Assembly (NCBI GenBank): GCA_014859205.1
Contig: JACUUR010000002.1
Span: forward strand, 1 to 56,438
Direction: 5' to 3'
Source: Dehalococcoidia bacterium
GTDB lineage: Bacteria; Chloroflexota; Dehalococcoidia; GIF9; AB-539-J10
Length of the DNA: 56,438 nt
Shown piece by piece: positions 32,906 to 56,438 of this stretch; the stretch's first letter is position 1; each line of letters begins with the position of its first letter. The position numbers and the translations under genes were made by a program. The notes beneath the pieces are model-generated. The model did not search any database and was not told the DNA's origin. It saw only the letters and a program-made list of their open reading frames with translations.

Positions 32906-33508
32906 ATGACATCTATCATTCTGGCAGGTGGGAGAAGCACCAGGCTGGGCCGGAGCAAGGCTCTCCAAGTTGTCGGGGACAGAACCCTGATACAGTGGGT
33001 TGTCGACCGCCTAGCCGTCCTGAGCACGGAGATCATCATAGCAACTGCCCATGGAGAGGCCATCCCCTGCTCGTCGCCCGTGACCATGAGAACTGTGGCG
33101 GATGTCTACCCCGACGGGGGGCCGCTGGGAGGGATCTACACCGGGCTGGCCTCTTCGTCTGGCGCCCGGGCCATCATAGTTGGCTGCGACACGCCCTTTC
33201 TGAACGTCGAGCTACTTGCTCATATGATGCGGATCTCACCGGAGTTCGACGTTGTGGTTCCGCGGGTAGGAGACAAGGTAGAGCCGCTATGCGCGGTGTA
33301 CTCCAGGCGCTGTATGGACACCATAAGGGGCCTGCTGGATGAGAACGAACTGAGAATCACCACGCTTTTTGGCCTGGTGAGCGTCAGATACATCGAGGTG
33401 TCTGAGATAGACACGTTCGATCCGGAGCACCTGAGCTTCCTCAATGCCAACAGCCAGACCGACCTGGAGAGGGCCAGAAGGCTGGCAGCCGAAAGAGGCC
33501 TGAGCTAG
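32906..33508 (+). CDS. mobA: Molybdenum cofactor guanylyltransferase
   Basis: 200 aa. IILAGGRSTRLGRSKA nucleotide-binding motif and VGCDTPFL. Its stop overlaps the convergent mvhD stop within CTAG (33505-33508). Confidence 0.8.
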   Translation: MTSIILAGGRSTRLGRSKALQVVGDRTLIQWVVDRLAVLSTEIIIATAHGEAIPCSSPVTMRTVADVYPDGGPLGGIYTGLASSSGARAIIVGCDTPFLNVELLAHMMRISPEFDVVVPRVGDKVEPLCAVYSRRCMDTIRGLLDENELRITTLFGLVSVRYIEVSEIDTFDPEHLSFLNANSQTDLERARRLAAERGLS

Positions 33509-33939
33509 GACTGACTGCCTACGGTGTCCCGCAAGGGACTGGGGCCGAGCTTCTTGATCTCCGAGACGAAATCGGTCACCACCTGGGCAAACCTCTGCCC
33601 CTCGGCGGCCGAGACCCACTCCAGCCTCAGCCGCTCGGACTCGATTCCCAGCTCAAGCAGCAGCTTCTTCAGCAGCAGCATCCTGCGCCGGGTCTTGTAG
33701 TTCCCCTCTAGATAGTGACAATCCCTGGGGTGGCATCCCCCTACAAACACGCCGTCAGCTCCCAAACGAAAGGCGTGCAGGATATACAGGGGGTCAACCG
33801 CTCCCGAACACATAAGCCTTATCATCCTCAAGTTGGGCGGATATTGAAGCCGGCTTATTCCGGCAAGGTCAGCCCCCGCATATGCGCACCAATTGCAGCA
33901 GAAGCCGATAATCTTGGGCTCAAAACTATCCGTCATCAT
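33505..33939 (-). CDS. mvhD: MvhD/FlpD-like [2Fe-2S] electron-transfer protein (copy 2)
   Basis: 144 aa. IIGFCCNWCAYAGADLAG...RLMCSGAV...VFVGGCHPRDCHY is the MvhD signature. ATG at 33937-33939 overlaps the hdrL TGA (ATGATGA). The track ORF start at 34143 is an extension. Confidence 0.85.
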   Translation of the reverse strand: MMTDSFEPKIIGFCCNWCAYAGADLAGISRLQYPPNLRMIRLMCSGAVDPLYILHAFRLGADGVFVGGCHPRDCHYLEGNYKTRRRMLLLKKLLLELGIESERLRLEWVSAAEGQRFAQVVTDFVSEIKKLGPSPLRDTVGSQS

Positions 33940-36900: not shown

Positions 36901-38411
36901 CGAGCGAAATCAAGAATCGAGGCTTGCCCCAGGGCAGTGATAACGGTATCAACGTCGACCATGAACTCCGAACCTGGAACCGCGACAGGGCGGCGACGTC
37001 CGCTGGCATCAGGCTCGCCGAGTTCCATCCTGACGCACTCCATCCCTGAGGTCCTCCCGCCTTCAATGATGATTCCGGTGGGGTTGGTCAGAAACACCAT
37101 CTCGATCCCCTCTTCCTCAGCACCCCTTACCTCCGAAGGCGTGGCCGGCATCTCGTCCCTTGAGCGCCGATAGATAACCTTTACGTCGGACCCCAAACGC
37201 CTGGCCACCCTGGCAGCATCAACCGCGGTATTGCCTCCACCCACTACCGCCACCCTCTGTCCCAGTTCAACCTCCTCGCCCATGTTGGCACGCCACAGGA
37301 AGTCGATAGCGTTGATAACCTGCGGTGAATCGCCTCCAGGGATGTCAAGCTTCGTACCACCATGAGCGCCGGTGGCGATGAACACGGCCTCATGGGATGT
37401 TCTAAGCGCCTCCAGTTGTATGTCCTCTCCTATTCTGCTGTTTGTCCTTATCTCGACTCCCAGTCTTCTTATGTAGTCTATCTCTTTGTTGAGTATAGCT
37501 TTGGGCAGGCGATACTCGGGAATGCCCACCCTGAGCATGCCTCCCGGTTCCGGCATGGCCTCGAATATGGTTACTTCATAGCCTGCCAGGGCAAGGTCGT
37601 GGGCTGCGGCCAGGCCTGCCGGACCGCTGCCGATAATGGCGATCTTCCTCCCGTTTCTGGTGATCTCGGGCACCTCGACAGCATCGATATCGATCTGGTC
37701 GGTGACAAATCTCTTCAGTTCCCTGATTGCTATAGAGTCATCCATCTGCGCCCGATTGCAGGCCTTCTCACAGGGGGCATAGCAGACGCGGCCGCAAACA
37801 ATAGGGAGCGGATTGGTGCTTCTTATCAGGTCATACGCTTCCTTGATCTTGCCGTCGGCGATCAACCTGGCATAGCCCTGAATATTCATGTGAATAGGGC
37901 AGGCGTCGCTGCAGGCTGCCTTACAGGGCCTGTCAGCCCGCCTGTCGATCACATAAGTGTTGGGCACAGATTGTAGGAAGGGGGTGTAAATCGCCTTGCG
38001 CTGCACCAAGCCCTGGTCGTACTCGTTCTTCATCGTAACCGGGCAACCCTGAGCACATAGGCCACATCCCGTGCATTTCGCTCCATCAACGAACCTGGCC
38101 TTCTTCTTCACCGATACTATGAAGTTGCCCGGCCGCCCCTTGATATCCAGCAGCTCAGAGTAGGTCAGAAGCTCAATATTGAGGTGTCTGCCGCACTCCA
38201 CCAGTTTGGGCGATAGAATACACATGGAGCAATCGTTGGTGGGGAAGGTCTTGTCCAGTTGGGCCATGACTCCGCCGATGGAGGGAGTCCTCTCCACGAG
38301 GTAGACATAGTATCCAGACTCAGCAAGGTCCAGCGATGTCTGAATACCCCCTATGCCTCCCCCTACGACAAGAACCGCTCCTACTGTGCCGTTTCCGTCT
38401 TGCTTATCCAT
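33936..38411 (-). CDS. HdrL-like giant flavoprotein: HdrA FAD unit with inserted GltD/NfnB-like NAD(P)H module, fused to a second complete HdrA unit
   Basis: 1491 aa. aa 1-160 are the HdrA core (VVGGGIGGIQ, SIGGVMAQLDKTFPTNDCSMCIL, CTGCGLCAQGCP). aa ~160-565 are GltD-like (CGRVCYAPCEKAC, IAIIGSGPAGL, VAVVGGGNTAVD, FAGGDAV). aa ~630-905 are the rest of HdrA (IQCVGSRD, YCSSVCC). aa ~928-1491 are a second HdrA (IGVFVCHCGVNIGG, ANIRDQCSWVH, VIGGGVAGM, IQCVGCRD, YCSRVCC, CTGCGICEAMCP, CKGCGTCCAACP). Confidence 0.85.
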   Translation of the reverse strand: MDKQDGNGTVGAVLVVGGGIGGIQTSLDLAESGYYVYLVERTPSIGGVMAQLDKTFPTNDCSMCILSPKLVECGRHLNIELLTYSELLDIKGRPGNFIVSVKKKARFVDGAKCTGCGLCAQGCPVTMKNEYDQGLVQRKAIYTPFLQSVPNTYVIDRRADRPCKAACSDACPIHMNIQGYARLIADGKIKEAYDLIRSTNPLPIVCGRVCYAPCEKACNRAQMDDSIAIRELKRFVTDQIDIDAVEVPEITRNGRKIAIIGSGPAGLAAAHDLALAGYEVTIFEAMPEPGGMLRVGIPEYRLPKAILNKEIDYIRRLGVEIRTNSRIGEDIQLEALRTSHEAVFIATGAHGGTKLDIPGGDSPQVINAIDFLWRANMGEEVELGQRVAVVGGGNTAVDAARVARRLGSDVKVIYRRSRDEMPATPSEVRGAEEEGIEMVFLTNPTGIIIEGGRTSGMECVRMELGEPDASGRRRPVAVPGSEFMVDVDTVITALGQASILDFARESGIQISRGGTIVTDGALASSVDGIFAGGDAVSGPSIAIEAIAAGKQAARSIDEYLRGEPLSPKEEERQLKKLSEVELAALRQRVPSRNRVPMKELDPEERIKSFEEVELGYSVSEAREEAERCLASQIEGCFQCQECAARCTAQAIEYEMQDEYLDLNVGAVVFAPGYDLFDPSVQYELGYRKYPNVVNSIEFERILGATGPYQGTLLRPSDLTPPQRIAFIQCVGSRDPSHNRPYCSSVCCTYAIKEAVIAKEHSTVPLDITIFFMDIRTHGKDFDKYYERAKEESGINFVRSKVYSIESADSSGDLVVKFATEDGTVTTERFSMVVLSVGFQSSPELVELARKGGVQINPYGFCQTQPFLPMTTSQPGIFVCGAFSAPKDIPETVVQASAAAGEISALLAPARGTLTRTKEYPPERDVSGEEPRIGVFVCHCGVNIGGYLDVPEVADYARTLPNVEYAERNLFTCSQDTQEKIKKAIEEYRLNRVVVASCTPRTHEPMFRETIRQAGLNPYLFEMANIRDQCSWVHMHEQEEATVKAEDLVRMAVAKAALIEPLTPVALPVNHRALVIGGGVAGMTSALTLAEQGFEVDLIERSNVLGGITRRIHFGLEGEDIQEFLDGLIHKVQEHPRIRVYTDTWIVDVHGYVGNFTTEVMRYRGRVVEKLEHGVTIIATGAEEYKPEEYLYGKDPRVLTQLELEEELLKKAPDIVNCDNLVMIQCVGCRDENRPYCSRVCCNRAINNALRLKEMKPDMNIYILYRDVRTYGFSEKYYEEARQKGVIFVRYDLENKPRVSQRRRDSRFLLGVETYDPVLGQNVVIDADILALSAAMVPSPEANELAMLYKVPLNQDGFFLEAHVKLRPVDFATDGVFVCGLAHAPKTIEESIAQAKAAAARASLVLVKDAVTGEGIVASVNEKICTGCGICEAMCPYVAIAVDREKGVSVVNAALCKGCGTCCAACPSGAVQQRGFTREEISAALSAALAGV

Positions 38412-43849: not shown

Positions 43850-44251
43850 CTACTTTCTAAGCAAGTCTTCTATTCTTCTGAGCAGTTCCGGAGGGTCGAC
43901 CGGCTTTTGAAGATAGTCCTCTGCCTCCATCATCATTCCCTCGCGCATAGAAAGGTGTATCTTATCTCTATCTTCCGGGTACACCGTGAGCATCAACACA
44001 GGGATGTCGGAGAAGAAATGATATTTCTCGTCGGTCTTGAGTTCCCGACAGACCTCAAACCCATGCTTCCCCGGCATTACCACGTCCAGGATGATCAAAT
44101 CAGGTCGCTCCTCCACCACGCTGCGCAGCCCTTCGCTTCCATCATAGGCCGACACCACCTGATAGGACCTGGGCTCAAGGATTTGCCTCACCACTATGTG
44201 CACATCCGGGTCATCATCAATCAGCAGAATCTTAGTTTGTTCAGGCATCAT
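43850..44251 (-). CDS. Stand-alone CheY-like receiver protein
   Basis: 133 aa. ILLIDDDPD...LIILDVVMPGKHGFEV with no output domain. Start overlaps the upstream stop as ATGA. Confidence 0.85.
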   Translation of the reverse strand: MMPEQTKILLIDDDPDVHIVVRQILEPRSYQVVSAYDGSEGLRSVVEERPDLIILDVVMPGKHGFEVCRELKTDEKYHFFSDIPVLMLTVYPEDRDKIHLSMREGMMMEAEDYLQKPVDPPELLRRIEDLLRK

Positions 44252-44643
44252 TGTCCTCCTTTGGAGAGAAGCTTCTCAACGCGCTCGAGAAGAATGAAGG
44301 GTTCAATGGGTTTTTCGATGTAGTCATCAACGCTCAGTTCATGGCCCAGCTCCAGCTCATAGCGCCGGTGACTGGCCTCCTCCCTGATTGAGCTTATCAC
44401 CAGGATAGGGACATCCGGATATTCCCTGTTCTGGCTATCCCGCAGTGCTTTCACCACAGCAAAGCCATCCATGCCCGGCATCAGGAGGTCCAGCAGCATT
44501 AACTGTGGCCTTTCCTCCTGCAAACGTCTCAACGCCTCATATCCGTCGCAAGCCTCAATCACGTCATACTGACGAGACCTCAGCACACTGGCAATCGCCA
44601 GCCTCATATCGGGGTCATCATCCACTATTAGGATCTTTGCCAT
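44248..44643 (-). CDS. Stand-alone CheY-like receiver protein
   Basis: 131 aa. KILIVDDDPD...LMLLDLLMPGMDGFAV with no output domain. Confidence 0.85.
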   Translation of the reverse strand: MAKILIVDDDPDMRLAIASVLRSRQYDVIEACDGYEALRRLQEERPQLMLLDLLMPGMDGFAVVKALRDSQNREYPDVPILVISSIREEASHRRYELELGHELSVDDYIEKPIEPFILLERVEKLLSKGGQ

Positions 44644-45796
44644 CTGTTTCTACCCGGCCAGCCTCGGTCTCTTTGGGCAGAATGAACGTGAACCTGCTTC
44701 CCTTGCCTGTCTCAGGGCAGGGACTGGTCGCCCATATTCTACCACCATGAGCTTCGATTATCTGCTTGCTAATCGAGAGCCCCAGACCGGCCCCCCTCTT
44801 CTCTACATCCAGGCCCTTGTAGAAGCCGTCAAATACCCGGGGCAGGTCATCGGTCGGGATTCCCGTTCCCGTGTCGACCACATCAACCTGCACGTAGCCA
44901 GCGCGATCCCTGGTCTTAACCGTGACCCCGCCACAGGGAGTAAACTTAATGGCATTGCTCAACAGGTTCGTCAATACCTGCTTAAGCCGGCCAGCACTCC
45001 CCAGGATTAAGGGAAGCTCCTGAGGGCCCTCATAGGACAGTTCCAGTCCCTTCTCCTGGGCCAGGGGGCGCATTATCTCAACGCAGTCCTCTACCATCTT
45101 GGTAAGGCAAACTTCCTCGGTCCTGAACCCGCCGAAATCAACCCGTGAGAAATCGATCATGTTGCTTATCAGATTGAGCAGGTCGGAAAGCCTCTTGCTG
45201 CTCCTCTGCACTATGTTCTTCTGCTCTTCGGTTAGTTCCCCCACAAAACCATCCAGCAAGAGCCGGTTGTAGCTTTCGGCTGCAGCCAGAGGAGCCTTAA
45301 GGTCATGGAAGATTACCGACAGGATACGCTCCATTGTCTGTTTGGTATGCTGCTGCCTCCTGGCGACCACTTTGGCAAGGTTATTGGCTACCTTGTAACC
45401 CATCCCAGGATTCTCATCCAGCAGCGCCTTAAGCTCGTCGCCGTCCAGAGCGATGATCTCGGTCTTCTCCAGACAGCGACCGGAGGACGTAAGAACATGC
45501 GGCTCCATGAGCGCCGACCAGCAGAAGCTGCTGCCCTCGGAAAGCACGTCGATCGTCGCCCGTTCCACAGAGCTACGGCTGAGAGCCAGGTCGGTTTCCA
45601 GGGCCACCCTGCCGGACTTGAGAGTCTGGACGTAGTTGCACTGCCCTCCCTCACAGAACATGACCGTGCCGGACTCGAAGGACTGTTCCTGGCAGATCGG
45701 CAGCAGTTTGTTCAGTTCATCGTCGGTCAAGTCGTGGAAGAGCTCAGACGACCGCAACGTATCCTTGACTGAGTTGGATTGGGCTGTAGCTTCCAT
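44618..45796 (-). CDS. Soluble sensor histidine kinase with an N-terminal cyclic-nucleotide-binding-like (Crp-type) domain
   Basis: cNMP-like beta-barrel region ELFHDLTDDELNKLLPICQEQSFESGTVMFCEGG...LKSGRV. H-box FHDLKAPL. N/G boxes LLSNAIKFT, DTGTGIP, GAGLGLSISKQI. No TM segments. The start is uncertain: the ATG at 45796 is chosen to avoid overlapping the divergent metF. Confidence 0.7.
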   Translation of the reverse strand: MEATAQSNSVKDTLRSSELFHDLTDDELNKLLPICQEQSFESGTVMFCEGGQCNYVQTLKSGRVALETDLALSRSSVERATIDVLSEGSSFCWSALMEPHVLTSSGRCLEKTEIIALDGDELKALLDENPGMGYKVANNLAKVVARRQQHTKQTMERILSVIFHDLKAPLAAAESYNRLLLDGFVGELTEEQKNIVQRSSKRLSDLLNLISNMIDFSRVDFGGFRTEEVCLTKMVEDCVEIMRPLAQEKGLELSYEGPQELPLILGSAGRLKQVLTNLLSNAIKFTPCGGVTVKTRDRAGYVQVDVVDTGTGIPTDDLPRVFDGFYKGLDVEKRGAGLGLSISKQIIEAHGGRIWATSPCPETGKGSRFTFILPKETEAGRVETDGKDPNSG

Positions 45797-45923
45797 GGGC
45801 CGCCGAACATTATAGGCGCTTTTGGATGTAAATGCAAAACTATGAAGGCAGTGCAGTGCCCAGGTGTTGCCCGAAACCCGTCGTTCTGGCATACTGTATC
45901 GAAATCCCGCCGGGAGTTCGAAC

Positions 45924-46847
45924 ATGAAGGTAGACAGCAATCTAGCCAGAGTACTGGAGGCAGGTCACTTCGCCGTTACTGCCGAGGTCAGTCCCCCCCA
46001 GAACACAGAACTCCAAGGCATCCGTGAGAAGGCGTCCATGATCAAGGGATTTGCCGACGCCGTCAACATACCTGATGGACAGGCAGCGGTGGTAGCGATG
46101 GCAAGCTGGGCGGGTTGCCTCGTAGCTAGCGAGGAGGGCCTGGACCCCATCATCCACATGACCTGCCGGGACCGAAACCGGATCGCCCTGCAAATGGACG
46201 TCCTGGCGGCGTCCGCCTTCGGCATCGCCAACATACTCTGCCTATCAGGGGATCCCATATCCTTTGGCAGCCATCCTCAGGCAGCACCCGTCTTCGACCT
46301 GGATTCTATCCAGTTGATCAGGACCGTGAAGGGACTCAGAGACGAGAGGAAGTTCGATAACGGAGAACTCATCGTGGGAGCAGAGCCCAGGCTTTTCATC
46401 GGGGCAGCCATAGACCCCTTCGTACGTCCACTGGACTCCGCAGTGGAACGCCTCAAGGCCAAGGTTGAGGCCGGAGCTGACTTCATCCAGACCCAGCCTG
46501 TGTACAACATGGAAGGATTCAGAACCTGGATGGAGTTGGTCCGAGCAGAGAGATTGCACAAGGACGTCAAGATCCTGGCCGGCCTCACTCCGATAACGTC
46601 TCTGGCAGCGGCAAGATACATGAAGATGAAGGTCAGCGGTGTGGACATACCCGACATGATCATTGAACGCCTCAAGAGTGCCCGTAACAAGGAAGAGGCT
46701 GCAGAGGAGGGACTGAAGATTGTGGTGGAAACCATAGAGCAGCTAAGGCAACTCGAGGGGGTGGCCGGCGTCCACATCATGACCCTGCAGCGAGAGGAGC
46801 TTATACCCAGGATCTGCAGCGCTGCAGGGCTTCACCCGCGCCCCTGA
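45924..46847 (+). CDS. metF: Methylenetetrahydrofolate reductase paralogue (stand-alone MetF)
   Basis: 307 aa. FAVTAEVSPPQ, AVNIPDG, MTCRDRNR and LCLSGD. GGGAG RBS 7 nt upstream of the ATG at 45924. Confidence 0.8.
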   Translation: MKVDSNLARVLEAGHFAVTAEVSPPQNTELQGIREKASMIKGFADAVNIPDGQAAVVAMASWAGCLVASEEGLDPIIHMTCRDRNRIALQMDVLAASAFGIANILCLSGDPISFGSHPQAAPVFDLDSIQLIRTVKGLRDERKFDNGELIVGAEPRLFIGAAIDPFVRPLDSAVERLKAKVEAGADFIQTQPVYNMEGFRTWMELVRAERLHKDVKILAGLTPITSLAAARYMKMKVSGVDIPDMIIERLKSARNKEEAAEEGLKIVVETIEQLRQLEGVAGVHIMTLQREELIPRICSAAGLHPRP

Positions 46848-46908: not shown

Positions 46909-49872
46909 CTACCACTTCTCCTGTGTTAGCCGCAACACCAGCCAGGTCCTCAGGCGTTCGTCCAGCTTGCCAACCCATGACTCTATCTTGCGTATATCTC
47001 CGCTCATGAGGGCGGCTCTCTCCTCCGAAGTCAGTTCGTATTCCTTCAGCGCCTCGGCCGGGTTCTCAGCCAATCGGGCCAGGAAGGCGTTGTCCCGGGC
47101 AGCTCTGTCAAGCACCCCCAGCACCGCATTCACCGCAGATACCTTGTACTCGGGGATCTTGGCCACAGGATCAAGGGCATCATTGGTAAGGATGTTTACC
47201 GCTGCCTCATGCCAGTGGAAAGGCATGAACACAACTCCGGGAGGCGATTTCTCGGTGATATGAACCGGCGTCTCAACTCTACCCCTCTTGGACGAAACCA
47301 CTACCTCGTCACCCTCAACAAGCCCCAGCTTGAGCGCGTCGTCGGGATGCATTTCCATTGCTCCGCCCGGACGCAGTTGACTTAGCACGTTAGCCCTGCG
47401 GCTCATGGTGCCTGTATGCCAGTGCTCCAGTATACGTCCGGTAGTGAGAACCAGAGGGTACCCCTTGGATACGGATTCGGCCGGCGGGGCATAACTCACC
47501 GCGTGGAACTTGCCCTTGCCTCGGGCAAAACCGTCCCGATAGAGGAACGGAGTGCCGGGATGCAGGGCATCCGGACAGGGCCATTGCAGGCCATCCCGAC
47601 CGAGACGGTCGAAGCTGACGCCGCCGTAGATAGGAGCTAGCGAGGCGATTTCCTCCATTATCTGGTCGGCACTCCGGTAGTCGAACGGCTCTCCCATCTT
47701 CTCGGCCAGGGAGCAGATGATCTGCCAATCAGGCCTGGCCTCGCCGGGAGGCATAAGCGCCTGCCGCACTTTCTGAATCCGCCTCTCCGTGTTGGTGAAG
47801 GTCCCATCCTTCTCTGCGAAGGAAGCGGCAGGAAACACCACATCAGCCATCCAACCGGTCTCGGACAGGAATATATCCTGAACCAGGAGGAAGTCGAGTT
47901 TGCCCATAGCCTGCCTGGCATGCTCAAGGTGAGGCTCGCTTAGCATGGGGTTCTCACCCATCACATACAGCCCTCTGATGTCTCCCCGGAGCACGCCGTT
48001 GGCAACCTCGGTAACCGTCACTCCAGCGCGGTCGCTTAGTTTGCGTCCCCAGGCGCATTCGAACTTCGTCCTGACGGCGGGGTCATCGACTCTTTGATAA
48101 CCGGGATAGACATTAGGCAGCGCTCCCATATCGCAGGCGCCCTGGACATTGTTCTGCCCCCGGAGAGGGCAGAATCCGGTGCCCTCCCTGCCCATGTTGC
48201 CGGTGAGTAACAGCAGGTTTGCCACACTCTTGACGTTGTCTGTGCCAGTCGTGTGCTGGGTTATGCCCATGCCGTAGAGAATGCAGGCGCTGTTGGCCTC
48301 TCCAAACAGCCGGGCTGCTGCCTCTATATCGGCCTGGCGCACCCCGGTTACAGACTCCGCGGTGGCAAGATCATACCCTTCCAGAAGCTGCCGTAATTCG
48401 TCGAAGCCCTCGGTACGCTCCCTGATGAAGTCCTTATCCTCAAGACCTTCTCTGAGGATTACGTGCATCAGGCCGTTGATGAGAGCAACGTCTGTGCCCG
48501 GCCTGTGGGCGAGTCTGACGCTGGCATATTCGCTGAGTTCGATGGAGCGAGGGTCAGCCACTATGAGCTTGGCTCCTGCCAACCTCACCCTTCGCTTGAT
48601 CATCGAGCCAATGATGGGATGACATTCAGTAGGATTGGAGCCGATCACGAAGAAGAGATCGGTCTTCTCGAAATCGGAATAAGAATTGGTCATCGCGCCC
48701 TGTCCGAAGGCGGCGATGCCCCCAACCACAGTAGAGGCATGGCACAGTCGGGCGCAGTGGTCGATGTTGTTGGTGCCTATCACGGCACGCACGAATTTCT
48801 GCATGACGTAATTATCTTCGTTGGTGCACTTTGCCGAGCTTAAGGCAGCGATGCTATCGGGTCCGTAAGCTTGCTTGAGACTTAGCAGCCTTTCTGCCGC
48901 CAGGCCAAGCGCCTCCTCCCAGGTAGCTTCACGGAATATCTCCTGTACCCGTCCGTTGTGACCTGCCTCCCGGGCGACGCCTGGCAAGCGGATCAACGGC
49001 GTCTTCAGTCTTTCAGGATGATTCACGAAATCATATCCCCAGCGTCCTTTTACACACAGGCTTCCCCTGTTGGCCGGCCCTTCGGAGTCGCCGCGCACCG
49101 ACACGATCCTGTTGTCTCGAACTCCCAGGTACATGGAGCAGCCCACTCCACAGTAGGGGCAAATGGTCTTGACCTCCTCAGCGGGTGGCTTCTCCCACTT
49201 GGGCGCCAGCGCCCCGGTAGGACATCGCGCCACACATTCACCACAAGACCTGCAAATCGACTCGGCGATCGGCCTGTCACCAAACGTGGCTACCTTTGCC
49301 GAGCTTCCCCGGAAGGCCAGATCAACAGCGCCGACCACGGCTATTTCGTGGCACGCCCGTATGCACCGGGCGCAGAGGATGCACTTGTTCGGGTCTCGCG
49401 TGAAGGCGGGATGGCTTCTATCCAGAGGTAGCACCTGAGTGCTTCTCCGTAACCGGTCCATATGCTCCTGCTCAACGCCTAGATATCGAGCAACCTTAAG
49501 GAGTTCACAGTCCTGGTTTCTGGTACAAGTTATACAATCCCCGTGATGATTGGCACTGATAAGCTCCATAGTCGTTCGCCGTGACCGAGTAACCCTGGGC
49601 GTGTCAGAATGCACCACCATGCCATCAGTGGCTGGTGTAGTGCACGAGCTAACCAGACCCCGCATGCCCTCGATCTCAACGACGCACAGGCGGCAACCTC
49701 CGTAAGGCTTGAGGTCAGGGTCATGACACAGCGTGGGGATGTAGATGCCAGCTTGCAGGGCCGCTTCCAGCACCGTAGCTCCAGCTCTGGCTATGACCTC
49801 GCTGTCATTGATCGTCAGCCTGATGACCTCCGCCTTTGCGTGATGGGTTTGCGCCGCGATAACTGTAGCCAT
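46909..49872 (-). CDS. fdhA: Formate dehydrogenase catalytic subunit, Cys-type, with N-terminal NuoG-like Fe-S domains and a ~70-aa C-terminal helical extension
   Basis: N-terminal 2Fe-2S (CRLCVVEI) and CILCARCIRAC, CRSCGECVARCP, CPYCGVGC clusters. Active-site HCARLCHAST has TGC at 48742-48744 where selenoproteins carry TGA. ATG at 49872 with AAGGAGG upstream. C-terminal tail ...FLARLAENPAEALKEYELTSEERAAL...QEKW. Confidence 0.9.
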   Translation of the reverse strand: MATVIAAQTHHAKAEVIRLTINDSEVIARAGATVLEAALQAGIYIPTLCHDPDLKPYGGCRLCVVEIEGMRGLVSSCTTPATDGMVVHSDTPRVTRSRRTTMELISANHHGDCITCTRNQDCELLKVARYLGVEQEHMDRLRRSTQVLPLDRSHPAFTRDPNKCILCARCIRACHEIAVVGAVDLAFRGSSAKVATFGDRPIAESICRSCGECVARCPTGALAPKWEKPPAEEVKTICPYCGVGCSMYLGVRDNRIVSVRGDSEGPANRGSLCVKGRWGYDFVNHPERLKTPLIRLPGVAREAGHNGRVQEIFREATWEEALGLAAERLLSLKQAYGPDSIAALSSAKCTNEDNYVMQKFVRAVIGTNNIDHCARLCHASTVVGGIAAFGQGAMTNSYSDFEKTDLFFVIGSNPTECHPIIGSMIKRRVRLAGAKLIVADPRSIELSEYASVRLAHRPGTDVALINGLMHVILREGLEDKDFIRERTEGFDELRQLLEGYDLATAESVTGVRQADIEAAARLFGEANSACILYGMGITQHTTGTDNVKSVANLLLLTGNMGREGTGFCPLRGQNNVQGACDMGALPNVYPGYQRVDDPAVRTKFECAWGRKLSDRAGVTVTEVANGVLRGDIRGLYVMGENPMLSEPHLEHARQAMGKLDFLLVQDIFLSETGWMADVVFPAASFAEKDGTFTNTERRIQKVRQALMPPGEARPDWQIICSLAEKMGEPFDYRSADQIMEEIASLAPIYGGVSFDRLGRDGLQWPCPDALHPGTPFLYRDGFARGKGKFHAVSYAPPAESVSKGYPLVLTTGRILEHWHTGTMSRRANVLSQLRPGGAMEMHPDDALKLGLVEGDEVVVSSKRGRVETPVHITEKSPPGVVFMPFHWHEAAVNILTNDALDPVAKIPEYKVSAVNAVLGVLDRAARDNAFLARLAENPAEALKEYELTSEERAALMSGDIRKIESWVGKLDERLRTWLVLRLTQEKW

Positions 49873-49888: not shown

Positions 49889-52800
49889 TTAGTCTTCCTC
49901 AAGGTCACATCTCAGGCACCGGCTCGCTTCCTCCATCGCCGCCTCCCTGCTCAGGCCGAGTTCGACCTCTGCAAAGCCGCCAAGGCGTTCGCATAAGGCC
50001 AACGTCGACACGCAGACCCGGTGTCTTTCACCTTCCTGGAGCTCGGGAAGTGCCTCCAGGTCTTCGGCCGGGGCCAGCACTTCATCTATTATGCCCGTAC
50101 CGCCCAGATACTTATCTATGGAAACCGCCGCCTGCCTTCCAGCGGCAATAGCCTCGATGACGGTGGCAGGGCCGGTCACCGCATCTCCACCCGCAAACAC
50201 GCCATCCCTGCCTGTAGCCAGAGAGTCAGGGTCTGACTCAAACGTGTTGCCGCCTTTCAGCGACAGGCCAAATGTACTGGCAGCCTCCGGCATCTGACCG
50301 ATAGCAGCGATAATGGTGTCAAATGCCATGCTGAACTCACTGCCCGGAAGCATAACCGGGCGCCTTCTGCCGCTGAAGTCCGCCTCCCCGAGCTCCATGC
50401 GAACGCAGGTCAGGTCCATGGTGCCGCTTCTTCTCTCAATTCTGGCGGGGGCAGCCAGGAACTCAAACTTCACGCCCTCATGTATTGCCTCCTCTATCTC
50501 CTCACTGCTTGCCGGCATCTCATCCCTGGTGCGACGGTAGATAACTGTCACTGCGCCGGCACCGAGGCGGAGTGCACTGCGAGCGACATCGATGGCCGCG
50601 TTGCCACCCCCGACAACAGCCACGTCCCTGCCTGCACTTACCGGGCTGCCACTGTTTACCTCCCTGAGGAACGCGACGCCCTCTATCACTCCGGGGCATG
50701 CCTCTCCCTCAATCCCCAGTTTGGTGCCTTGATGGGCACCGATAGCCAGGAAAACGGCATGATAGCCATCTCCAAGAAGGTCATCAACAGAGCTAATGCG
50801 TGTGTTTGTCCTTATCTCAACGCCTGCGCTCCGTATATCCCCGATCTCCTGGGCCAGTATTTCTCTGGGCAGACGATACTCGGGAATTCCATATCTCATC
50901 ATGCCTCCAGGCTCGGACAGCGCCTCGAAAACGGTAACACCATGCCCTCGCCTGGCCAGGTAATAGGCGGCGGTCAGTCCGGCCGGGCCAGCACCTATTA
51001 CTGCAACTCGTTTCCCGGTGGGAGCAACTGCCCTGACTTTCAGTTTCCAGAGCCCGTTTCCTTGTTCAGCCGCAGCTCGCTTAAGAGCCCTTATGGCGAT
51101 GGTTTCGTCGACCTGTCCCCTTCGACACTTCGCTTCACAGGGATGCGGACAGACATGCCCGCAGATGGAGGGGAACGGTATCTTCTCCCTGATTACAGCC
51201 AGAGCAGAATCAAACTGCCCCAGGCCGATGAACCGGAGATAACGGGGCACATCTACGCCGGCAGGACAAGTATGGCTGCAGGGAGCCTTGACCAGTCCTT
51301 TGCACACGGCAGCGGAACAATGGTGTCTCTTGATATGATCCTCGTATTCCCTACGAAAGTGACGTATACTGGTAAGCACAGGATTAGGAGCCGTTTGTCC
51401 CAGGCCGCATAGGGAACCATCCTTGACCGATTCTGCCAGCTCCTCAAGCAACTCAATGTCATCAGGCCTACCCCTGCCATTGGCTATGTCCTCCAGTATG
51501 TCAAGCATCTGCTTGGTGCCCCAGCGACAGGGGATGCATTTGCCACAGGACTCGAGTTGGGTGAAGGAGAGGAAGAAACGGGCCATGTCAACCATGCAGG
51601 TGTCCTCATCCGTCACCACCATACCTCCCGAGCCCATGATCGATCCTGCCGCAGCCAGGGACTCATAGTCGATAGGCAGATCGAGCAAGCTGGCCGGGAG
51701 ACAACCTCCCGATGGTCCGCCGGTCTGTACTGCCTTGAAGCGCTTGCCGCCGGGCACGCCTCCTCCGATCTCGAAGATAAGCTCCCGCAGCGTAACTCCC
51801 ATAGGTATCTCTATCAAACCGGCATTGGCGACCTTGCCTGTCAGAGCGAAGACGGCAGTGCCCTTGCTCTTCTCAGTGCCGATGCTCGCGTACCAGTCTG
51901 CGCCCTTGCCTACTATCACGGGAATGGAGGCAAGGGTCTTCACATTGTTGATATTGGTGGGCTTTCCCCACAGTCCTGATTGTGCCGGAAAGGGCGGACG
52001 ACTACGGGGCATACCCCTCTTTCCCTCAATCGACGCCATCAATGCCGTCTCCTCACCGCAGACAAAGGCCCCGGCACCCTCCTTGATATGCAGGGTGAAA
52101 TCGAACTGCGACCCCAAGATATTCTTACCCAGGAACCCTTTCTCGCCAGCCTGCCCGATGGCAATACGCAAACGCTTCATGGCTAAGGGATACTCAGCGC
52201 GGCAATACACATATCCTTCGCTGGACCCGATCGCATAGGCAGCAATGGCCAGCCCCTCTATAACTGTATGCGGGTCAGCCTCCATGATGCTCCGGTCCAT
52301 AAACGCGCCGGGGTCGCCCTCGTCAGCATTGCAGATCACATACTTCTGGCTTCCGCTTGAGTTGCGACAGAACTCCCACTTGAGGGCCGTGGGGAAGCCA
52401 GCACCACCCCGACCTCGCAGGCCCGACCGCCTGATCTCCTCGATCACCGCCTCGGGAGTCATCTCGAACAGCGCCTTCTTCAGCGCGTCATAGCCGCCGG
52501 TGGCGATGTAATCCTCGATCCTTTCAGGGTTAATGTGTCCACAGTTACGCAGGATTAGCCGACTCTGCCTCTTATAGAAGTTGACTTCTCGATAGGTCGC
52601 GATTGCTTCGCCAGTGGCCGGGTCTTGATAGAAAAGACGCTCCACCCATATGCCCCGTTTCAGATGAGAGTTGACGATCTCGGCCGCATCCTCGACCCTA
52701 ACATGAGTGTAGAAGATACCTTCAGGCTCGACAACCACTATCGGTCCCTGCTGGCAGAAGCCATGGCAACCCGTGAAGTCCACCTCGACATTGCTCAGGC

Positions 52801-52930
52801 CTTCCTGACGCACCCCGTCCTCGAGTGCCCTGCGGATATCCTCCGACCTGGAGGACGTACAGCCTGTGCCCTGACAGACAAGCACCCTCATGCGCCCCCT
52901 GGAATCGACGCCCTGAATTCTCTCGATCAC
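49889..52930 (-). CDS. NuoF/HydB-like NAD(P)H-FMN subunit fused to a C-terminal GltD/NfnB-like FAD-NAD(P)H module
   Basis: 1013 aa. N-terminal thioredoxin-like 2Fe-2S (VCQGTGC...CHGFC). NuoF motifs [24 protein letters not shown]. aa ~540-945 are GltD-like ([43 protein letters not shown]). GTG start with GGAGG upstream, overlapping the nuoE stop. Confidence 0.85.
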   Translation of the reverse strand: [1013 protein letters not shown]

Positions 52931-53445
52931 TGCTTACCTCCGGAGTGCTGCAGTAGGTCAGTTGCCTTTCTGGGATTCATCTCGCCGTGTGTCTCATTGT
53001 TCACCACCATTGTTGGCGCCAGTGCACAGGCACCGATGCAGGCCACTGTCTCCAGACTGTATTCCAGGTCCGAGGTACTCTCACCCGGCTTGATGCCCAG
53101 ATGCTTCTCGACTTCACGGAGTATGCGAGGGCCACCCCGCACGTGACAGGCAGTGCCTCGACAAACCCTGATGATGTTCCGACCCGAAGGAACCAGCTTA
53201 AACTGGGCATAAAAGGTCGCTACGGCGAAGACCGTGCTTTCCGGCAGAGTGAAGAATCCGGCTATCCTCTTCATCGCCTGTTCCGGCAGATAGCCTAACG
53301 CCTGCTGAACTTGCTGCAACACGGGGATGAGTTCATCCTCCCTGCCTTCGCAGCCGGACAGTATCCTGTCGAGGCGTTCCTCAGCATTCACCCCCTGCTC
53401 AGTCTGGAGCACCTGCAAGTCTTGCGTGGTCGACGGGCTTATCAT
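52927..53445 (-). CDS. NuoE/HydC-like thioredoxin-fold [2Fe-2S] subunit
   Basis: 172 aa. IPVLQQVQ...RVCRGTACHVRG...ETVACIGACALAP is the NuoE cysteine pattern. Confidence 0.85.
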   Translation of the reverse strand: MISPSTTQDLQVLQTEQGVNAEERLDRILSGCEGREDELIPVLQQVQQALGYLPEQAMKRIAGFFTLPESTVFAVATFYAQFKLVPSGRNIIRVCRGTACHVRGGPRILREVEKHLGIKPGESTSDLEYSLETVACIGACALAPTMVVNNETHGEMNPRKATDLLQHSGGKQ

Positions 53446-53460
53446 GTTGCACCTCGCTGT

Positions 53461-53745
53461 TCACCATTTCTCCTGAGACAGCCGGCACCAAAGCCAGGTA
53501 GCTAGCCTGGTGTCTAGCTTGCCGATCCAGGATTCTATGGTTCTGATATCTCCGCTGGCCAGTGCGGCTCTCTCCTCGGCAGTCAAGCAGTAGTACTCCT
53601 TGAGAGCCTCGTGGGGGTCCTCGGCCAATCTCGCCAGGAACTCGGACTCGCTGGCCGCTCTCTCCAGGACAGCGACTAACTCGTCTCGACCTGGCCTTGC
53701 CTGCACCTCAGCCCCTTCGTGCGTTACTTGAAGCGATCTGGTCAT
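53461..53745 (-). CDS. Small helical protein of unknown function, paralogous to the C-terminal tail of FdhA
   Basis: 94 aa from the ATG at 53745 (GGGAGG RBS 8 nt upstream). ...FLARLAEDPHEALKEYYCLTAEERAALASGDIRTIESWIGKLDTRLATWLWCRLSQEKW aligns along its length with FdhA residues ~928-999. Confidence 0.6.
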   Translation of the reverse strand: MTRSLQVTHEGAEVQARPGRDELVAVLERAASESEFLARLAEDPHEALKEYYCLTAEERAALASGDIRTIESWIGKLDTRLATWLWCRLSQEKW

Positions 53746-53865
53746 TTTCTTTGCCTCCCTTCTTTTCTTTTCCATGCTTATTCTAGTATTCGCGGTTCCG
53801 CCCGACATCGTACATAGGTTGGAATCTTGAGTAGCACCTTGGTTACGTACAAAAGGGCAGTCGCC

Positions 53866-53894
53866 TTGCCTGAAAGTACACATGCGCTTATAAT
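53866..53894 (+). promoter_or_regulatory. Candidate sigma-70-like promoter for the NarL-type two-component operon
   Basis: TTGCCT (53866-53871), 17-nt spacer, TATAAT (53889-53894). About 20 nt upstream of the TTG start at 53915. Confidence 0.35.
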
Positions 53895-53914: not shown

Positions 53915-54598
53915 TTGGGTACAAAGAATAGGTTAACGGTCTTGATCGCTGACGATCACCCTCTGGTACGCGAGGCACTGCATCAGGCACTGGAGGCCGA
54001 GGAGGACCTGGAGGTTGTGGCTGAGGCCTGTGACGGCGAGGAGGCGGTTAAGCTTGCCTCCGAGTTGAGGCCTGACGTGGCCGTGATGGACATTGTGATG
54101 CCCAAACTCAACGGTATAGAGGCCACCAGAAAGATCAAAGAGGTCGCCCCTGACATAGCGATTCTGATTCTCACTGCCTACGATGACGATGAGTATGTGC
54201 TGGGCCTGCTGGATGCTGGAGCAGCAGGTTATCTCCTCAAGAGCGCCAGAGGACGCGACCTGGCCGGAGCCATTCGAGCCATCAAGTCAGGTGAGTCCGT
54301 GCTCCATCCCAAGATTATCGCCAAGCTGCTGAAGCGAGCGATGGTGGCGCCGGCTCAGGAGCACAGAGCCTCGGACCTGCTGAGCGACCGTGAAATGGAG
54401 GTCCTGAGACTGGTCGCTCTGGGGATAGGCAACAGGGAGATAGCAGCAAAGCTGTTTCTGAGCCAGCGCACTGTTAAGGCTCATCTCACCAATATCTTCA
54501 ACAAGCTCAACGTGGCCTCGCGCAGTGAGGCGATTGTCAAAGGACTACAATGGGGATTGATAACTCTAGAAGATTCCGGCGAAAGGCCCCGCGGCTAG
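53915..54598 (+). CDS. NarL/FixJ (LuxR-type HTH) response regulator
   Basis: 227 aa. VLIADDHPLVREAL...DVAVMDIVMPKLNG receiver domain plus LSDREMEVLRLVALGIGNREIAAKLFLSQRTVKAHLTNIFNKL HTH. TTG start is uncertain. Confidence 0.85.
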   Translation: MGTKNRLTVLIADDHPLVREALHQALEAEEDLEVVAEACDGEEAVKLASELRPDVAVMDIVMPKLNGIEATRKIKEVAPDIAILILTAYDDDEYVLGLLDAGAAGYLLKSARGRDLAGAIRAIKSGESVLHPKIIAKLLKRAMVAPAQEHRASDLLSDREMEVLRLVALGIGNREIAAKLFLSQRTVKAHLTNIFNKLNVASRSEAIVKGLQWGLITLEDSGERPRG

Positions 54599-56067
54599 GC
54601 AATCCGCACTTCTGGATCATAACCGTCCTGTTCGTCTTTCTGACCATATCTCATTTCACCGAGGTACTATCACACTTACCATTCCTGGGGCACATCTCGA
54701 TGCCCGCAGCCCTGGAACTGTCACGTCACAGTCTGGAGCGGCTGTTATATCTCCTGTTGATGCTCTACGCAGGCTGGGCGCTGGGGCTTATCGGGGGTGT
54801 CGTGCTATGGACGTCAAGCGCCGCGGCCATGCTGCTTCGCACCTTCATCATCTCGCCCAATTTCAGAGATGCTTTGATGGAAAGCCTGGCTAGCCTGGCT
54901 GTTGGCGCCCTCGCCATCACCCTCATGGCCACCTACCGGCAGAACCAGCGACAACAGCGCAAACTGGAAAAGGCGATCAGAGACGGCGAGTTGGCCCGGC
55001 GGAACTATGAAGAGCTGTTTGCTAACGCTAGCGACGCCATCTGGGTTCACGATATGGAGGGGAAGATCACCCTGGCCAACAAGGCCTGTGAAAAGCTGAC
55101 CGGTTACCCGATCTCAGAGCTGACTGGCAAGAACGTACGCGATTTTATCGCCATGGAGGCGCTGCCTTTGACGAGGGAGGTGAAAGACAGGCTGCTAAGA
55201 GGAGAGGCTATGGACCAGAGGTATGAGCGCAGACTGATCAAGAAGGACGGGTCTGAAGCGATCATACAGTTGTCCACCCGCCTCATCGTCAGTGACGGCG
55301 AGCCTCAGGCCTTTCAGCACCTGGCCCGTGATATCACTGAGGAGCGAAGATTGCAGGACAATCTGCAGTTCTACCTGAGACAGGTTCTACAGGCACAGGA
55401 GGAGGAGCGCAAGCGCCTTGCCCGTGAACTCCATGACGACGCGTCTCAGCAGACACTGCTGCTAACGCACGGCATAGATAACCTCGCCAGCAGGATTGAG
55501 AAGTATCTGCCCGAAGAGCTCCGAGATGATTTGGGCAGACTGCATGGTCTCTCCCAACAGACGTACGACAGCATCAAGCGCTACGCTCAGGCTCTGAGGC
55601 CCCGCATCCTGGACGACCTGGGCCTCGTGCCGGCCATCAAATGGCTGGCGCAGGAAGTCCATGAACTCAGCGGAATCGAGATAGAGGTGCAGACGGATAC
55701 CATCCCGCCACTGGCTCCAGAGATTCAGCTGGTCTTGTTCCGCATCGTTCAGGAGGCACTGAACAATATCCATAGGCACTCGCGCGCTTCTGAAGCCACC
55801 GTTCAAGTGCAGTGCACGGACAACGAGATCAACGTCACCATTACCGACAACGGCAAGGGTTTTGAGATTCCCAAGCAGTTGAGTGACTTCACCCGTCGCG
55901 GTATGCTGGGCCTCACCGGCATGGCGGAGCGAGCTCAGTTAGTAGGCGGACACCTTGATGTCCGTTCCGGGGAAGGGAAGGGGACCGAGTTGCGGGTGAC
56001 GGTACCTACACGGCTCTACACCCCGGCCGGGAGTCAAAGTGAACAGCGGCAGAAGGCCAGCGATTGA
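54550..56067 (+). CDS. Membrane sensor histidine kinase, HisKA_3 (NarX/DegS) type with a PAS domain
   Basis: Hydrophobic N-terminal segments. PAS region YEELFANASDAIWVHDMEGKITLANKACEKLTGY. H-box RKRLARELHDDASQQ. HATPase region EALNNIHRHS...DNGKGF...GLTGMAERAQLVGG. The start overlaps the regulator gene by 49 nt and is uncertain. Confidence 0.8.
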   Translation: MGIDNSRRFRRKAPRLGNPHFWIITVLFVFLTISHFTEVLSHLPFLGHISMPAALELSRHSLERLLYLLLMLYAGWALGLIGGVVLWTSSAAAMLLRTFIISPNFRDALMESLASLAVGALAITLMATYRQNQRQQRKLEKAIRDGELARRNYEELFANASDAIWVHDMEGKITLANKACEKLTGYPISELTGKNVRDFIAMEALPLTREVKDRLLRGEAMDQRYERRLIKKDGSEAIIQLSTRLIVSDGEPQAFQHLARDITEERRLQDNLQFYLRQVLQAQEEERKRLARELHDDASQQTLLLTHGIDNLASRIEKYLPEELRDDLGRLHGLSQQTYDSIKRYAQALRPRILDDLGLVPAIKWLAQEVHELSGIEIEVQTDTIPPLAPEIQLVLFRIVQEALNNIHRHSRASEATVQVQCTDNEINVTITDNGKGFEIPKQLSDFTRRGMLGLTGMAERAQLVGGHLDVRSGEGKGTELRVTVPTRLYTPAGSQSEQRQKASD

Positions 56068-56189
56068 GGGCAAGAACAGACTAACCACACAGTGTGTAGT
56101 GACCCGATGCTTCACCTTCGACTCAGTGTGTTGTCACTTTATACAGCCTGCTCACGCCTTCTCAACCCTGACTGCGGCAAGTTTGAACT

Positions 56190-56438
56190 CTGGGATCTTG
56201 GCTGCCGGGTCACGCTCGGGGCTGGGCAAGACGCTTCCTGCCGCCTCATCACAACCAAGAAGACGTGAGCAGGCGCGGGAAACCGGCCGGGGATCGCGAG
56301 AGCCCAGTACGGGCTGGGGATGATGCATATGCCACCCACGGCAGCCGGGGAGGTACTGGAGATCGTCGTGCGCCGTTACGAAGAGGGGGCGATCATCATG
56401 ACGACCAACCGTCCTCTGGAGGACTGGGGCCAGGTGCT
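56190..56438 (+). pseudogene. istB: Decayed IS21-family istB (AAA+ helper ATPase) remnant, running off the window edge
   Basis: Frame 2 encodes a Walker-A-like GSRSGLGKT (GLGKT at 56219-56233) and stops at 56321-56323. Frame 1 then encodes EVLEIVVRRYEEGAIIMTTNRPLEDWGQV, which matches the IstB C-terminal LFxxIxxRYExxSxIxTxNxxxxxW pattern. The spacing between the two is too short and a frameshift is needed. No istA lies upstream. Confidence 0.45.

Follow-up and report, generated by a model that had tools for sequence, protein, structure and literature searches.

The stretch of DNA analysed here (the window) comprises 56,438 nucleotides of contig JACUUR010000002.1 from a Dehalococcoidia bacterium (assembly GCA_014859205.1). 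On its minus strand it encodes a formate dehydrogenase (FDH) operon with the gene order F, NuoE-like subunit, NuoF-like/GltD fusion and FdhA-T, in which F is a free-standing copy and T a tethered copy of the same small module. The features of the operon and its surroundings are as follows.

53461..53745, minus strand: F, the free copy, assigned to the Os1348 family; first gene of the FDH operon
F, layout: residues 1-22, variable low-confidence N-terminus; residues 23-94, predicted six-helix module
F, signature of the free type: EYY...K/T79...A82...W86-C87...QEKW
52927..53445, minus strand: NuoE-like [2Fe-2S] subunit, starting 15 nt past the F stop in the same reading frame
49889..52930, minus strand: NuoF-like FMN/NADH subunit with a GltD/NfnB-like FAD/NAD(P)H domain, 1013 aa
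46909..49908, minus strand: fdhA, 999 aa; NuoG-like Fe-S N-terminus, Mo/W-bis-PGD catalytic subunit and T
46912..47127, minus strand: T, the tethered copy; C-terminal 72 residues of FdhA, then stop
T, signature of the tail type: EY...E79...R82...V86-L87...QEKW
53915..54598, plus strand: LuxR-type response regulator (REC and GerE), divergent from F
54550..56067, plus strand: PAS histidine kinase (HisKA_3), paired with the LuxR-type regulator
45864-46847: MetF, downstream of the FDH operon
32906-33508: mobA

The FdhA that carries T scores 835 bits against the Fdh-alpha equivalog model TIGR01591 (cut-off, 666 bits), and its ligand motif, HCARLCHAST, is of the Cys type. Further downstream lie genes for a cNMP-domain kinase, two receiver-only proteins, HdrA-like proteins, MetV and a second MetF, as well as for a 1491-aa HdrA/GltD-type fusion, MvhD and MobA. 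Pfam scans detected no FocA among the window genes. A tblastn search with both modules in six frames found no third copy in the window, the next best match having an E value of 0.15. The first-pass annotation had suggested the neighbouring Hdr/MetFV proteins as a docking partner of the module; this suggestion is not supported, since none of the HdrA-like, MvhD, MetF and MetV proteins in the window carries the module by the same search.

F consists of 94 codons and a stop, with the same translation as in the first-pass annotation, and starts at an ATG at 53745 that is preceded, 8 nt upstream, by a GGGAGG Shine-Dalgarno sequence. A longer open reading frame of 140 aa, with an ATG at 53883, is an unlikely source of the product; the start at 53745 is preferred because of its ribosome-binding site and because most homologues are of 94 aa. 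It had been estimated by eye that the two modules agree in about 50 of 70 positions and end alike in QEKW. BLASTP bears this out, with 51 of 74 residues identical and 61 of 74 similar, one gap of 1 aa and an E value of 7e-34; QEKW-stop ends both F and the FdhA tail. At the nucleotide level the two are 69% identical, and 23 of the 51 residues that they share are encoded by different synonymous codons. By these values the duplication is old and is maintained by purifying selection at the protein level; it is neither a recent repeat nor a product of gene conversion.

In FdhA, T follows directly on the last strand of the molybdopterin cap domain, with no linker in between (...IPEYKVSAVN-AVLGVLDRAA...). 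When the window FdhA is aligned to the solved FDHs 7vw6, 6tg9, 9t1s, 7qv7 and 7bkb, the match ends at its residues 926-929, and with FdhF (1aa6) at 937, around ...KVSAVNA. Because all these alignments stop there, the tail is an add-on, without counterpart in any solved FDH, in agreement with the earlier proposal that canonical FdhA ends near ...PEYKVSAVNA.

The resemblance of the module to Os_1348 and other NHLP proteins that the first-pass annotation named was confirmed with the NCBIfam model NF038399 ("Os1348 family NHLP clan protein"), against which F reaches 43.9 bits and the FdhA tail by itself 55.1 bits, both above the curated cut-off of 40 bits. Two relatives, P0181 and P0209, score 50.4 and 43.5 bits, respectively; the FocA tail of locus L005, described below, stays under the cut-off at 34.4 bits (E 1.7e-8). 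In a Pfam scan the module matched PF14407 at sub-threshold level only. NF038399 is a model of 63 positions that stops before the last helix of the module, and the conserved end ...TWLxxRLxQEKW falls outside it; this end is a feature of the present subfamily. The AlphaFold model of the window F has six helices and modest confidence (pLDDT 62.8). Foldseek with this model gave as its top match 6lk7, the structure of Os1348, at E 0.79 and TM 0.44/0.61, which is weak; next came SonA in complex with SonM, and LigA/DesB, likewise at E values near 1. A sequence search of the PDB with the module gave no more than a marginal match, to 6lk7 (E 0.4). Membership of the Os1348 family follows from the curated sequence model, with which the weak fold evidence is consistent.

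Os1348 of Pseudomonas sp. Os17 (PDB 6LK7) is a protein of 85 aa with six helices; in the crystals it forms a homodimer that is stable by PISA, with an interface composed of helices 1, 4, 5 and 6, and its gene adjoins GNAT, HEXXH-peptidase and SagB-type genes. A role as a modified precursor has been proposed for it (PMC7726476). Both copies in the window score above the cut-off of its family, and six is also the number of helices predicted for the module. They differ from it in that Os1348 is free-standing and linked to antibiotic activity, whereas the module described here occurs as a free and fused pair, always with formate genes and no modifying enzymes, carries one more conserved helix at its end, with QEKW as the last residues, and shows low direct similarity to Os1348 (E 0.4). 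Other structured helical members of this clan are the leaders of ribosomally synthesized peptides (RiPPs), such as SonA with SonM, and NHLPs with YcaO or halogenases, which engage a partner enzyme (PMC12455567, PMC12537861). Those leaders, however, have at their C-terminus a variable core peptide, which undergoes modification and release, whereas the present module has no core, no cleavage site and no modifying enzyme. As to the likeness to LigA that the first-pass annotation also named, LigA and DesB recur as weak fold matches, and the Pfam scan gave no LigA match. LigA, a separate chain of the protocatechuate 4,5-dioxygenase LigAB, is likewise a small helical protein, and DesB chains of ~400 residues align with the module over ~70 columns in the fold search (E around 1, a lead only), but the chemistry and context of these enzymes are unrelated. 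LigA caps the catalytic subunit of its enzyme, and DesB is the fused counterpart.

At E<=0.001, homologues of F fall into 842 clusters. Among those listed, most have 94-102 aa, and those with an NCBI name belong to Dehalococcoidia or Chloroflexota MAGs. With the tail as query, C-terminal fragments of FdhA with the module were recovered (P0121-P0128 and others) together with free forms of 108-121 aa. The window operon is repeated in loci L002-L004, including the regulator-kinase pair and a tailed FdhA of 987 aa. In loci L005-L007, the gene immediately after F codes instead for a FocA-type formate/nitrite transporter of 418 aa, which has the module at its own C-terminus, ...TWLASRQAQEKW. A census with one genome per species yielded 76 loci, or 77 with the window; 75 of the 76 are titled as Dehalococcoidia, Dehalococcoidales, Chloroflexota, Chloroflexi or Chloroflexia MAGs, and the remaining one is an unclassified bacterial MAG. 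For this census the module HMM was run on all stop-to-stop open reading frames and the hosts were classed against reference proteins; the loci were screened for the FocA, NuoE/NuoF/FdhA, GltD and regulator-kinase classes only, and neighbours outside those classes stayed unclassified.

F occurs with FocA-T in 46 of the 77 loci, with NuoE-NuoF-FdhA-T in 19, and alone in 12, so that the pair is found more often on FocA-type channels than on FdhA. In the 12 loci with F only, a contig end or, in L030, a frameshift comes before T would be reached; the downstream genes cut off in this way are NuoE/NuoF/FdhA or FocA, except in L036 and L070, which have no classifiable downstream gene up to the end of the contig. 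Wherever the contig is long enough, T stands at the end of the unit (65 of 65 free copies in the 76 species-representative loci and the window). The gap between F and the next gene is typically 0-30 nt. For 66 free copies a divergent LuxR-type regulator is encoded at most 700 nt away, in FDH-type and FocA-type units alike, the window among them.

The census loci also contain 25 FdhA paralogues without a tail, which end 6-19 residues past the catalytic domain. F is found at the operon head of none of these 25, as opposed to 19 of the 19 tailed FdhAs (Fisher p 7e-13, with kinship between loci ignored). Because the loci of this census had been seeded from F, a reverse census was carried out in which metagenome contigs were scanned with the FdhA C-terminus and loci with at least 7.5 kb upstream were kept; here F accompanies 9 of 10 tailed and 0 of 13 tail-less FdhAs (p 1e-5, again with kinship between loci ignored). 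The tenth tailed FdhA (L090) is no exception to the rule, as the last 7 codons of F are kept at a breakpoint, which is where homology to a sister contig begins. Neither is P0129 (71 aa, L001) a stand-alone tail: stop codons come immediately before ...ALDPVAKIPEFKVSAIKA, and the 71 aa are the remnant of a truncated fdhA 3' end. The co-occurrence of F and T is essentially exceptionless, and its reach is lineage-wide, far beyond the window, taking in formate channels as well as formate dehydrogenases. The two are functionally inseparable, in the sense that co-occurrence speaks of functional coupling, direct contact being a separate matter. That the free and tethered copies work together, as the first-pass annotation had supposed, is strongly, if indirectly, supported by their co-occurrence and co-absence in the censuses; the founder of the Os1348 family forms a stable homodimer. 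A matched pair of this kind in Dehalococcoidia suggests that formate metabolism has an accessory or regulatory partner system not described before.

Comparison of 87 free and 63 tethered modules separates the two classes. F copies from FDH-type and FocA-type units share 75% identity with one another, and 76-77% within each type. The tails form separate groups, with 83% identity within FdhA tails and 70% within FocA tails. Mean identity is 68% between F and FdhA tails, 56% between F and FocA tails, and 59% between the two kinds of tail. An extra Tyr at position 51 is found in 97% of F (EYY) and is absent from 100% of T (EY). At position 86, F has Trp (89%) and T most commonly Thr or Ile; at position 79, Lys (66%) stands against Glu (90%), and at position 82, Ala (70%) against Arg or Lys. 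Position 31 is Ala in all F (100%) and Arg in FocA tails. The most conserved part of both classes is the C-terminus ...RLxQEKW, in which Q, E and K reach 98% and the final W 92-98%. The last helix, one of those that build the Os1348 interface, contains 4 of the 8 class-specific positions, a marginal result (p 0.05); the Os1348 interface helices taken together contain 6 of the 8, which is not a significant enrichment (p 0.34). One MAG has F genes that are 98.7% identical in nucleotide sequence ahead of a FocA-T unit and an FDH-T unit on separate contigs. Judging by these sequences, the same F evidently serves both kinds of unit, and F and T are distinct, old, selected paralogue classes, which argues for heterotypic over strictly homotypic pairing.

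Other carriers of the module, to which the first-pass annotation had looked for a clue to its role, were collected by an exhaustive profile search (500 representative proteins, E<=0.001). The module is attached to FocA (P0261) and to C-terminal fragments of FdhA (P0273, P0294, P0328), and in P0315 and P0333 it precedes NuoE, that is, F is fused with its downstream neighbour. Seven proteins combine one or two receiver domains with the module (P0267, P0277, P0312, P0344, P0354, P0374, P0375), P0228 has an HTH domain followed by two modules, and P0229 an Fe-S domain followed by two modules. In locus L051, a protein composed of REC and an F-type module is encoded directly upstream of FocA-T, and the REC-module protein P0312 lies directly upstream of an FNT transporter that itself has a receiver domain. 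The neighbours of P0344 are kinases and sigma-54 regulators, and no formate gene is visible in its surroundings; P0277, P0229 and P0315 are on short contigs, where the context is uninformative. The receiver-domain and HTH fusions suggest a link to regulation. P0228 is a singleton on a contig of 915 nt; the model of its tandem reaches pLDDT values of 96 and about 90 for the two modules, with a much deeper alignment than that of the monomer, to which this confidence may simply be owed, so that it does not prove pairing. In this model helix 6 of the first module continues into helix 1 of the second, and a Foldseek search with it gave no clearer Os1348 match.

In our reading, for which we see a somewhat better than even chance, the module is an Os1348-family (NHLP-clan) six-helix protein-protein interaction domain and not a peptide precursor in these loci, and F binds T, with an accessory or regulatory role on formate-handling proteins. 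F would bind T in a 1:1 ratio as a heterodimer equivalent to the Os1348 homodimer, and the two together would cap the enzyme or channel with a small helical structure at its cytoplasmic face. On FdhA, to which T is attached rigidly at the end of the cap domain, the structure would sit on that domain beside the C-terminus, in the region that matches the FdsD site; on FocA it would sit on the C-terminus, with T hanging from the cytoplasmic end past the Y-L-R motif. The likeliest outcome would be that F serves to control formate flux or assembly. Some lineages have F joined to a phospho-receiver domain, and a regulatory role is suggested by the receiver-domain and HTH fusions together with the adjoining two-component system.

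Placed in this way, an F-T cap would be well positioned to influence formate access in FdhA as well as FocA, because of the position of FdsD in a related enzyme and the requirement for the C-terminus of E. coli FocA. In the Rhodobacter FDH, the 71-aa FdsD binds near the FdsA C-terminus and locks the cap, at the entry of a hydrophilic substrate tunnel (PMC7171172), and in E. coli FocA the last six C-terminal residues are needed for translocation (PMC5572259). FdsD of R. capsulatus FdsGBAD (PDB 6TG9/6TGA) resembles the module in being a ~70-aa helical accessory at the C-terminal cap domain of FdsA (PMC7171172), and T starts directly at the end of the same cap domain. However, FdsD is a four-helix bundle and a single free subunit, and is not found with FocA. 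Searches for a relation between the two gave no match of the module to FdsD in the Pfam scan at E<=1 and no 6tg9/6tga FdsD chain among the fold matches. The Pfam family of FdsD is presumably PF11390.

A more specific possibility, which we advance only tentatively, is that F and T form a dedicated partner-switch or gating system in which F would bind the same docking domain on channel and FDH, coordinating formate uptake with oxidation or coupling the two, and in which F would, in some lineages, be under two-component or phosphorylation control. A parallel is offered by glnK and amtB. GlnK is a PII trimer that binds the AmtB channel directly, and glnK is encoded upstream of the channel that its product plugs. 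The two systems share a conserved two-gene unit with the gene for a small soluble protein immediately upstream of that for the channel; they differ in that the channel here bears its own copy of the small protein's fold as a likely docking site. If F and T do act as a partner switch, an NHLP-clan domain would for the first time have a function outside RiPPs, and a regulatory subunit would for the first time be described for an FNT channel other than in the PflB-FocA case.

It is also conceivable, if rather improbable, that the modules build a scaffold or metabolon: T on FocA and on FdhA would be bridged by F as an adaptor, and FDH would dock onto the channel so that formate is handed over or CO2-derived formate exported. 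One module type is indeed present on two proteins that handle one substrate and whose termini are both cytoplasmic (PMC5572259), and the region near the FdsA C-terminus of the R. capsulatus enzyme is the entry of the hydrophilic substrate tunnel (PMC7171172). The F copies behave as one interchangeable group across both operon types, and one MAG has near-identical F genes ahead of its FocA-T and FDH-T units. However, each operon has its own F, as self-contained F-T pairs predict; F has no evident second interaction surface, its N-terminus being variable and of low confidence; and FocA-T is absent from the window.

There is a similarly small chance that F acts mainly in signalling, as a regulator within the adjacent two-component system that T would sequester or release according to flux or abundance, with feedback on operon expression. 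The divergent LuxR-type regulator/kinase pair beside 66 free copies in both operon types fits this model, and so do the invariably promoter-proximal position of F, the existence of REC-F and HTH-module-module fusions, and the occurrence of REC-module proteins beside kinases and sigma-54 regulators in places where no formate gene is seen. Transporter co-sensing by DctA-DcuS and GlnK-AmtB offers parallels. The fusions of F to NuoE (P0315, P0333), on the other hand, make F look like a structural part of an enzyme complex, and the model overlaps with the heterodimer reading in that F-T binding is still required.

Decidedly unlikely is a homotypic or competitor arrangement, of the kind raised in the first-pass annotation, in which FdhA or FocA would oligomerise through contacts between T modules and free F would compete for these, limiting the oligomers. 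Such contacts would match the homodimer of Os1348 (PMC7726476) and the dimerisation of the R. capsulatus FDH via FdsA (PMC7171172), and F is 68% identical to FdhA tails, but the differences between F and T look complementary and not mimetic (Lys79 against Glu79, Ala82 against Arg or Lys82, the bulky Trp86 against smaller side chains), FocA forms its pentamer with no domain of this kind, and a mere competitor would not need the strict 1:1 gene linkage. To a maturation chaperone, with T as an assembly tag and F holding FdhA until the Mo/W cofactor is inserted, a role also suggested for FdsD, we give very little probability: bis-MGD insertion is promoted by FdsD, whose binding site is close to the FdsA C-terminus (PMC7171172), and mobA is present in the window (32906-33508), but the majority partner, FocA, has no cofactor to insert, the module has no sequence or fold similarity to FdsD, and T is kept in the mature reading frame with an invariant end. 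The least probable reading of all makes F a ribosomal peptide precursor, with the C-terminal QEKW as core peptide to be modified, in line with the proposal for Os1348: F belongs to the NHLP clan and has sub-threshold PF14407 matches, and in Pseudomonas the Os1348 gene has GNAT, HEXXH-peptidase and SagB-type neighbours (PMC7726476), but this reading is disfavoured because no modifying-enzyme gene lies near either copy or elsewhere among the window's annotated genes (Pfam scans found no YcaO, SagB-type, lanthionine-synthetase, radical-SAM or HEXXH genes), because the C-terminus is invariant, with neither a hypervariable core nor a Gly-Gly type cleavage motif, and because the same domain ends a 999-aa enzyme and a membrane channel, the recognised neighbours being always formate genes.

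What is new here is that a known domain family occurs in a strictly conserved split architecture and in a new biological context. The Os1348 family has so far been linked only to peptide antibiotics, and the present module is found on formate proteins; a family annotated as RiPP precursors would also lead a separate life as a protein-protein docking domain. Within the literature searched, coverage of which was incomplete and gives no proof of novelty, no work came up that connects formate dehydrogenase or FocA to NHLP or nitrile-hydratase-like domains. Anaerobic and subsurface communities, in which Dehalococcoidia are abundant, use formate as a central currency, and the regulation of cytoplasmic Wood-Ljungdahl-linked FDHs and of FNT channels outside enterobacteria is largely uncharted. 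Two domains of ~70 aa shared by a channel and an enzyme offer an experimentally tractable handle for binding. In genome mining, open reading frames of this kind would be false positives for natural-product precursors. Where the free proteins have public names, these are "Os1348 family NHLP clan protein" or "hypothetical protein", and the module tails on FdhA and FocA go unnamed; P0378, the only tailed FocA with an NCBI name, is a "formate/nitrite transporter family protein".

Two further features of the loci may be added. Some loci have two copies of F per T, and for these the simple 1:1 picture may be incomplete. F is in frame with the next gene in 12 of 27 NuoE cases and 27 of 58 FocA cases, compared with about one-third expected; as a hint of readthrough this excess is, by such a rough estimate, modest at best.

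The region between the gene for the free 94-aa Os1348-family module protein (F) and the divergently transcribed LuxR-type regulator gene contains sequence blocks that are conserved across 28 related loci, including the following two:

53854-53872, palindrome-like element; consensus AGGGCA-N7-TGCCCT, window copy CAGGCAAGGCGACTGCCCT
53887-53894, second conserved intergenic block, ATTATAAG

The left arm of the window copy of the palindrome-like element is imperfect relative to the consensus. For the LuxR-type regulator, these intergenic blocks are candidate operators or promoter elements.

On its other side, F shares a reading frame with the NuoE-like gene, and at their junction (53443-53463) only a TGA stop and five codons separate the two. 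By raw count, such an in-frame, stop-only junction is found in 12 of the 27 NuoE cases among the related loci, where about one third would be expected, and natural F-NuoE fusions occur outside the window (P0315 and P0333). At L090, a locus with a tailed FdhA from the metagenome census, F is reduced upstream of nuoE to its final seven codons (RLSQEKW and stop; 4862-4885), and unrelated sequence takes the place of the remainder of F and of the regulator genes. This locus represents either a real deletion, leaving a formate dehydrogenase (FDH) with the tethered module copy (T) but without F, or a chimeric assembly. The 71-aa P0129 (L001, 7932-8216), listed as a protein in databases, was rejected as a separate architecture: it is a 3' remnant of a gene for tailed FdhA that has otherwise been deleted, and it adjoins a selenocysteine FDH of the FdnGHI type and a [NiFe] hydrogenase cluster.

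Beyond the kinase-regulator pair, related loci carry a tail-less FDH paralogue, and a second FdhA-like gene has the matching placement in the window:

56152-56438, minus strand, 3' end of the second FdhA-like gene, at the right edge of the window

This gene has the canonical end (...DPAAKIPEFKLAAVRVEKA and stop) without the tail, and only its last ~30 codons match tail-less FdhA (63% identity). Because the ~60 codons before the matching end gave no match in any frame, the gene may be frameshifted or degenerate in the window.

Several other electron-transfer and signalling genes of the window encode fusions or regulators:

49889-52930, minus strand, 1013-aa fusion of a NuoF-like subunit with a GltD/NfnB-like FAD/NAD(P)H domain
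33936-38411, minus strand, 1491-aa fusion of GltD-like (Fer4_20 and Pyr_redox_2), HdrA-like FAD and C-terminal ferredoxin domains
43850-45940, minus strand, response regulators of 133 and 131 aa that consist of a receiver only, plus a histidine kinase bearing a cyclic-nucleotide-binding domain

Whereas the window NuoF-like subunit carries the GltD/NfnB-like domain, its L002 counterpart is a 636-aa NuoF-ferredoxin protein, so the diaphorase side of this FDH differs among close relatives, possibly altering nucleotide specificity or enabling bifurcation. The 1491-aa protein, preceded by MetF/MetV and followed by MvhD (33505-34143), is an unusually large electron-transfer protein of the Wood-Ljungdahl methyl-branch cluster. 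The signalling genes lie between Hdr-like genes and MetF, and the module is absent from both receiver-only proteins.

Some loci in which T is the tail of a FocA-type formate channel (L005, 5385-10596; L042, L037, L048, L053, L057 and L069) have an extra F copy that lies upstream of their F-FocA-T pair at a distance of ~4.2 kb. At this position in L005, a degenerate 75-aa module-like ORF heads a cluster encoding a cNMP-binding protein, acetyl-CoA synthetase and a SatP-type acetate channel. With the extra copy, each T is accompanied by two F-like genes, and in L005 there is a tie to acetate uptake. On the contig with P0312 (JGI 3300042731), a 456-aa formate/nitrite transporter (FNT) family protein itself bears a receiver (REC) domain, and ahead of its gene lie those for a REC-module protein, a double-REC protein and a Pyr_redox-REC fusion; here a phosphorelay looks to be connected straight to the FNT channel.
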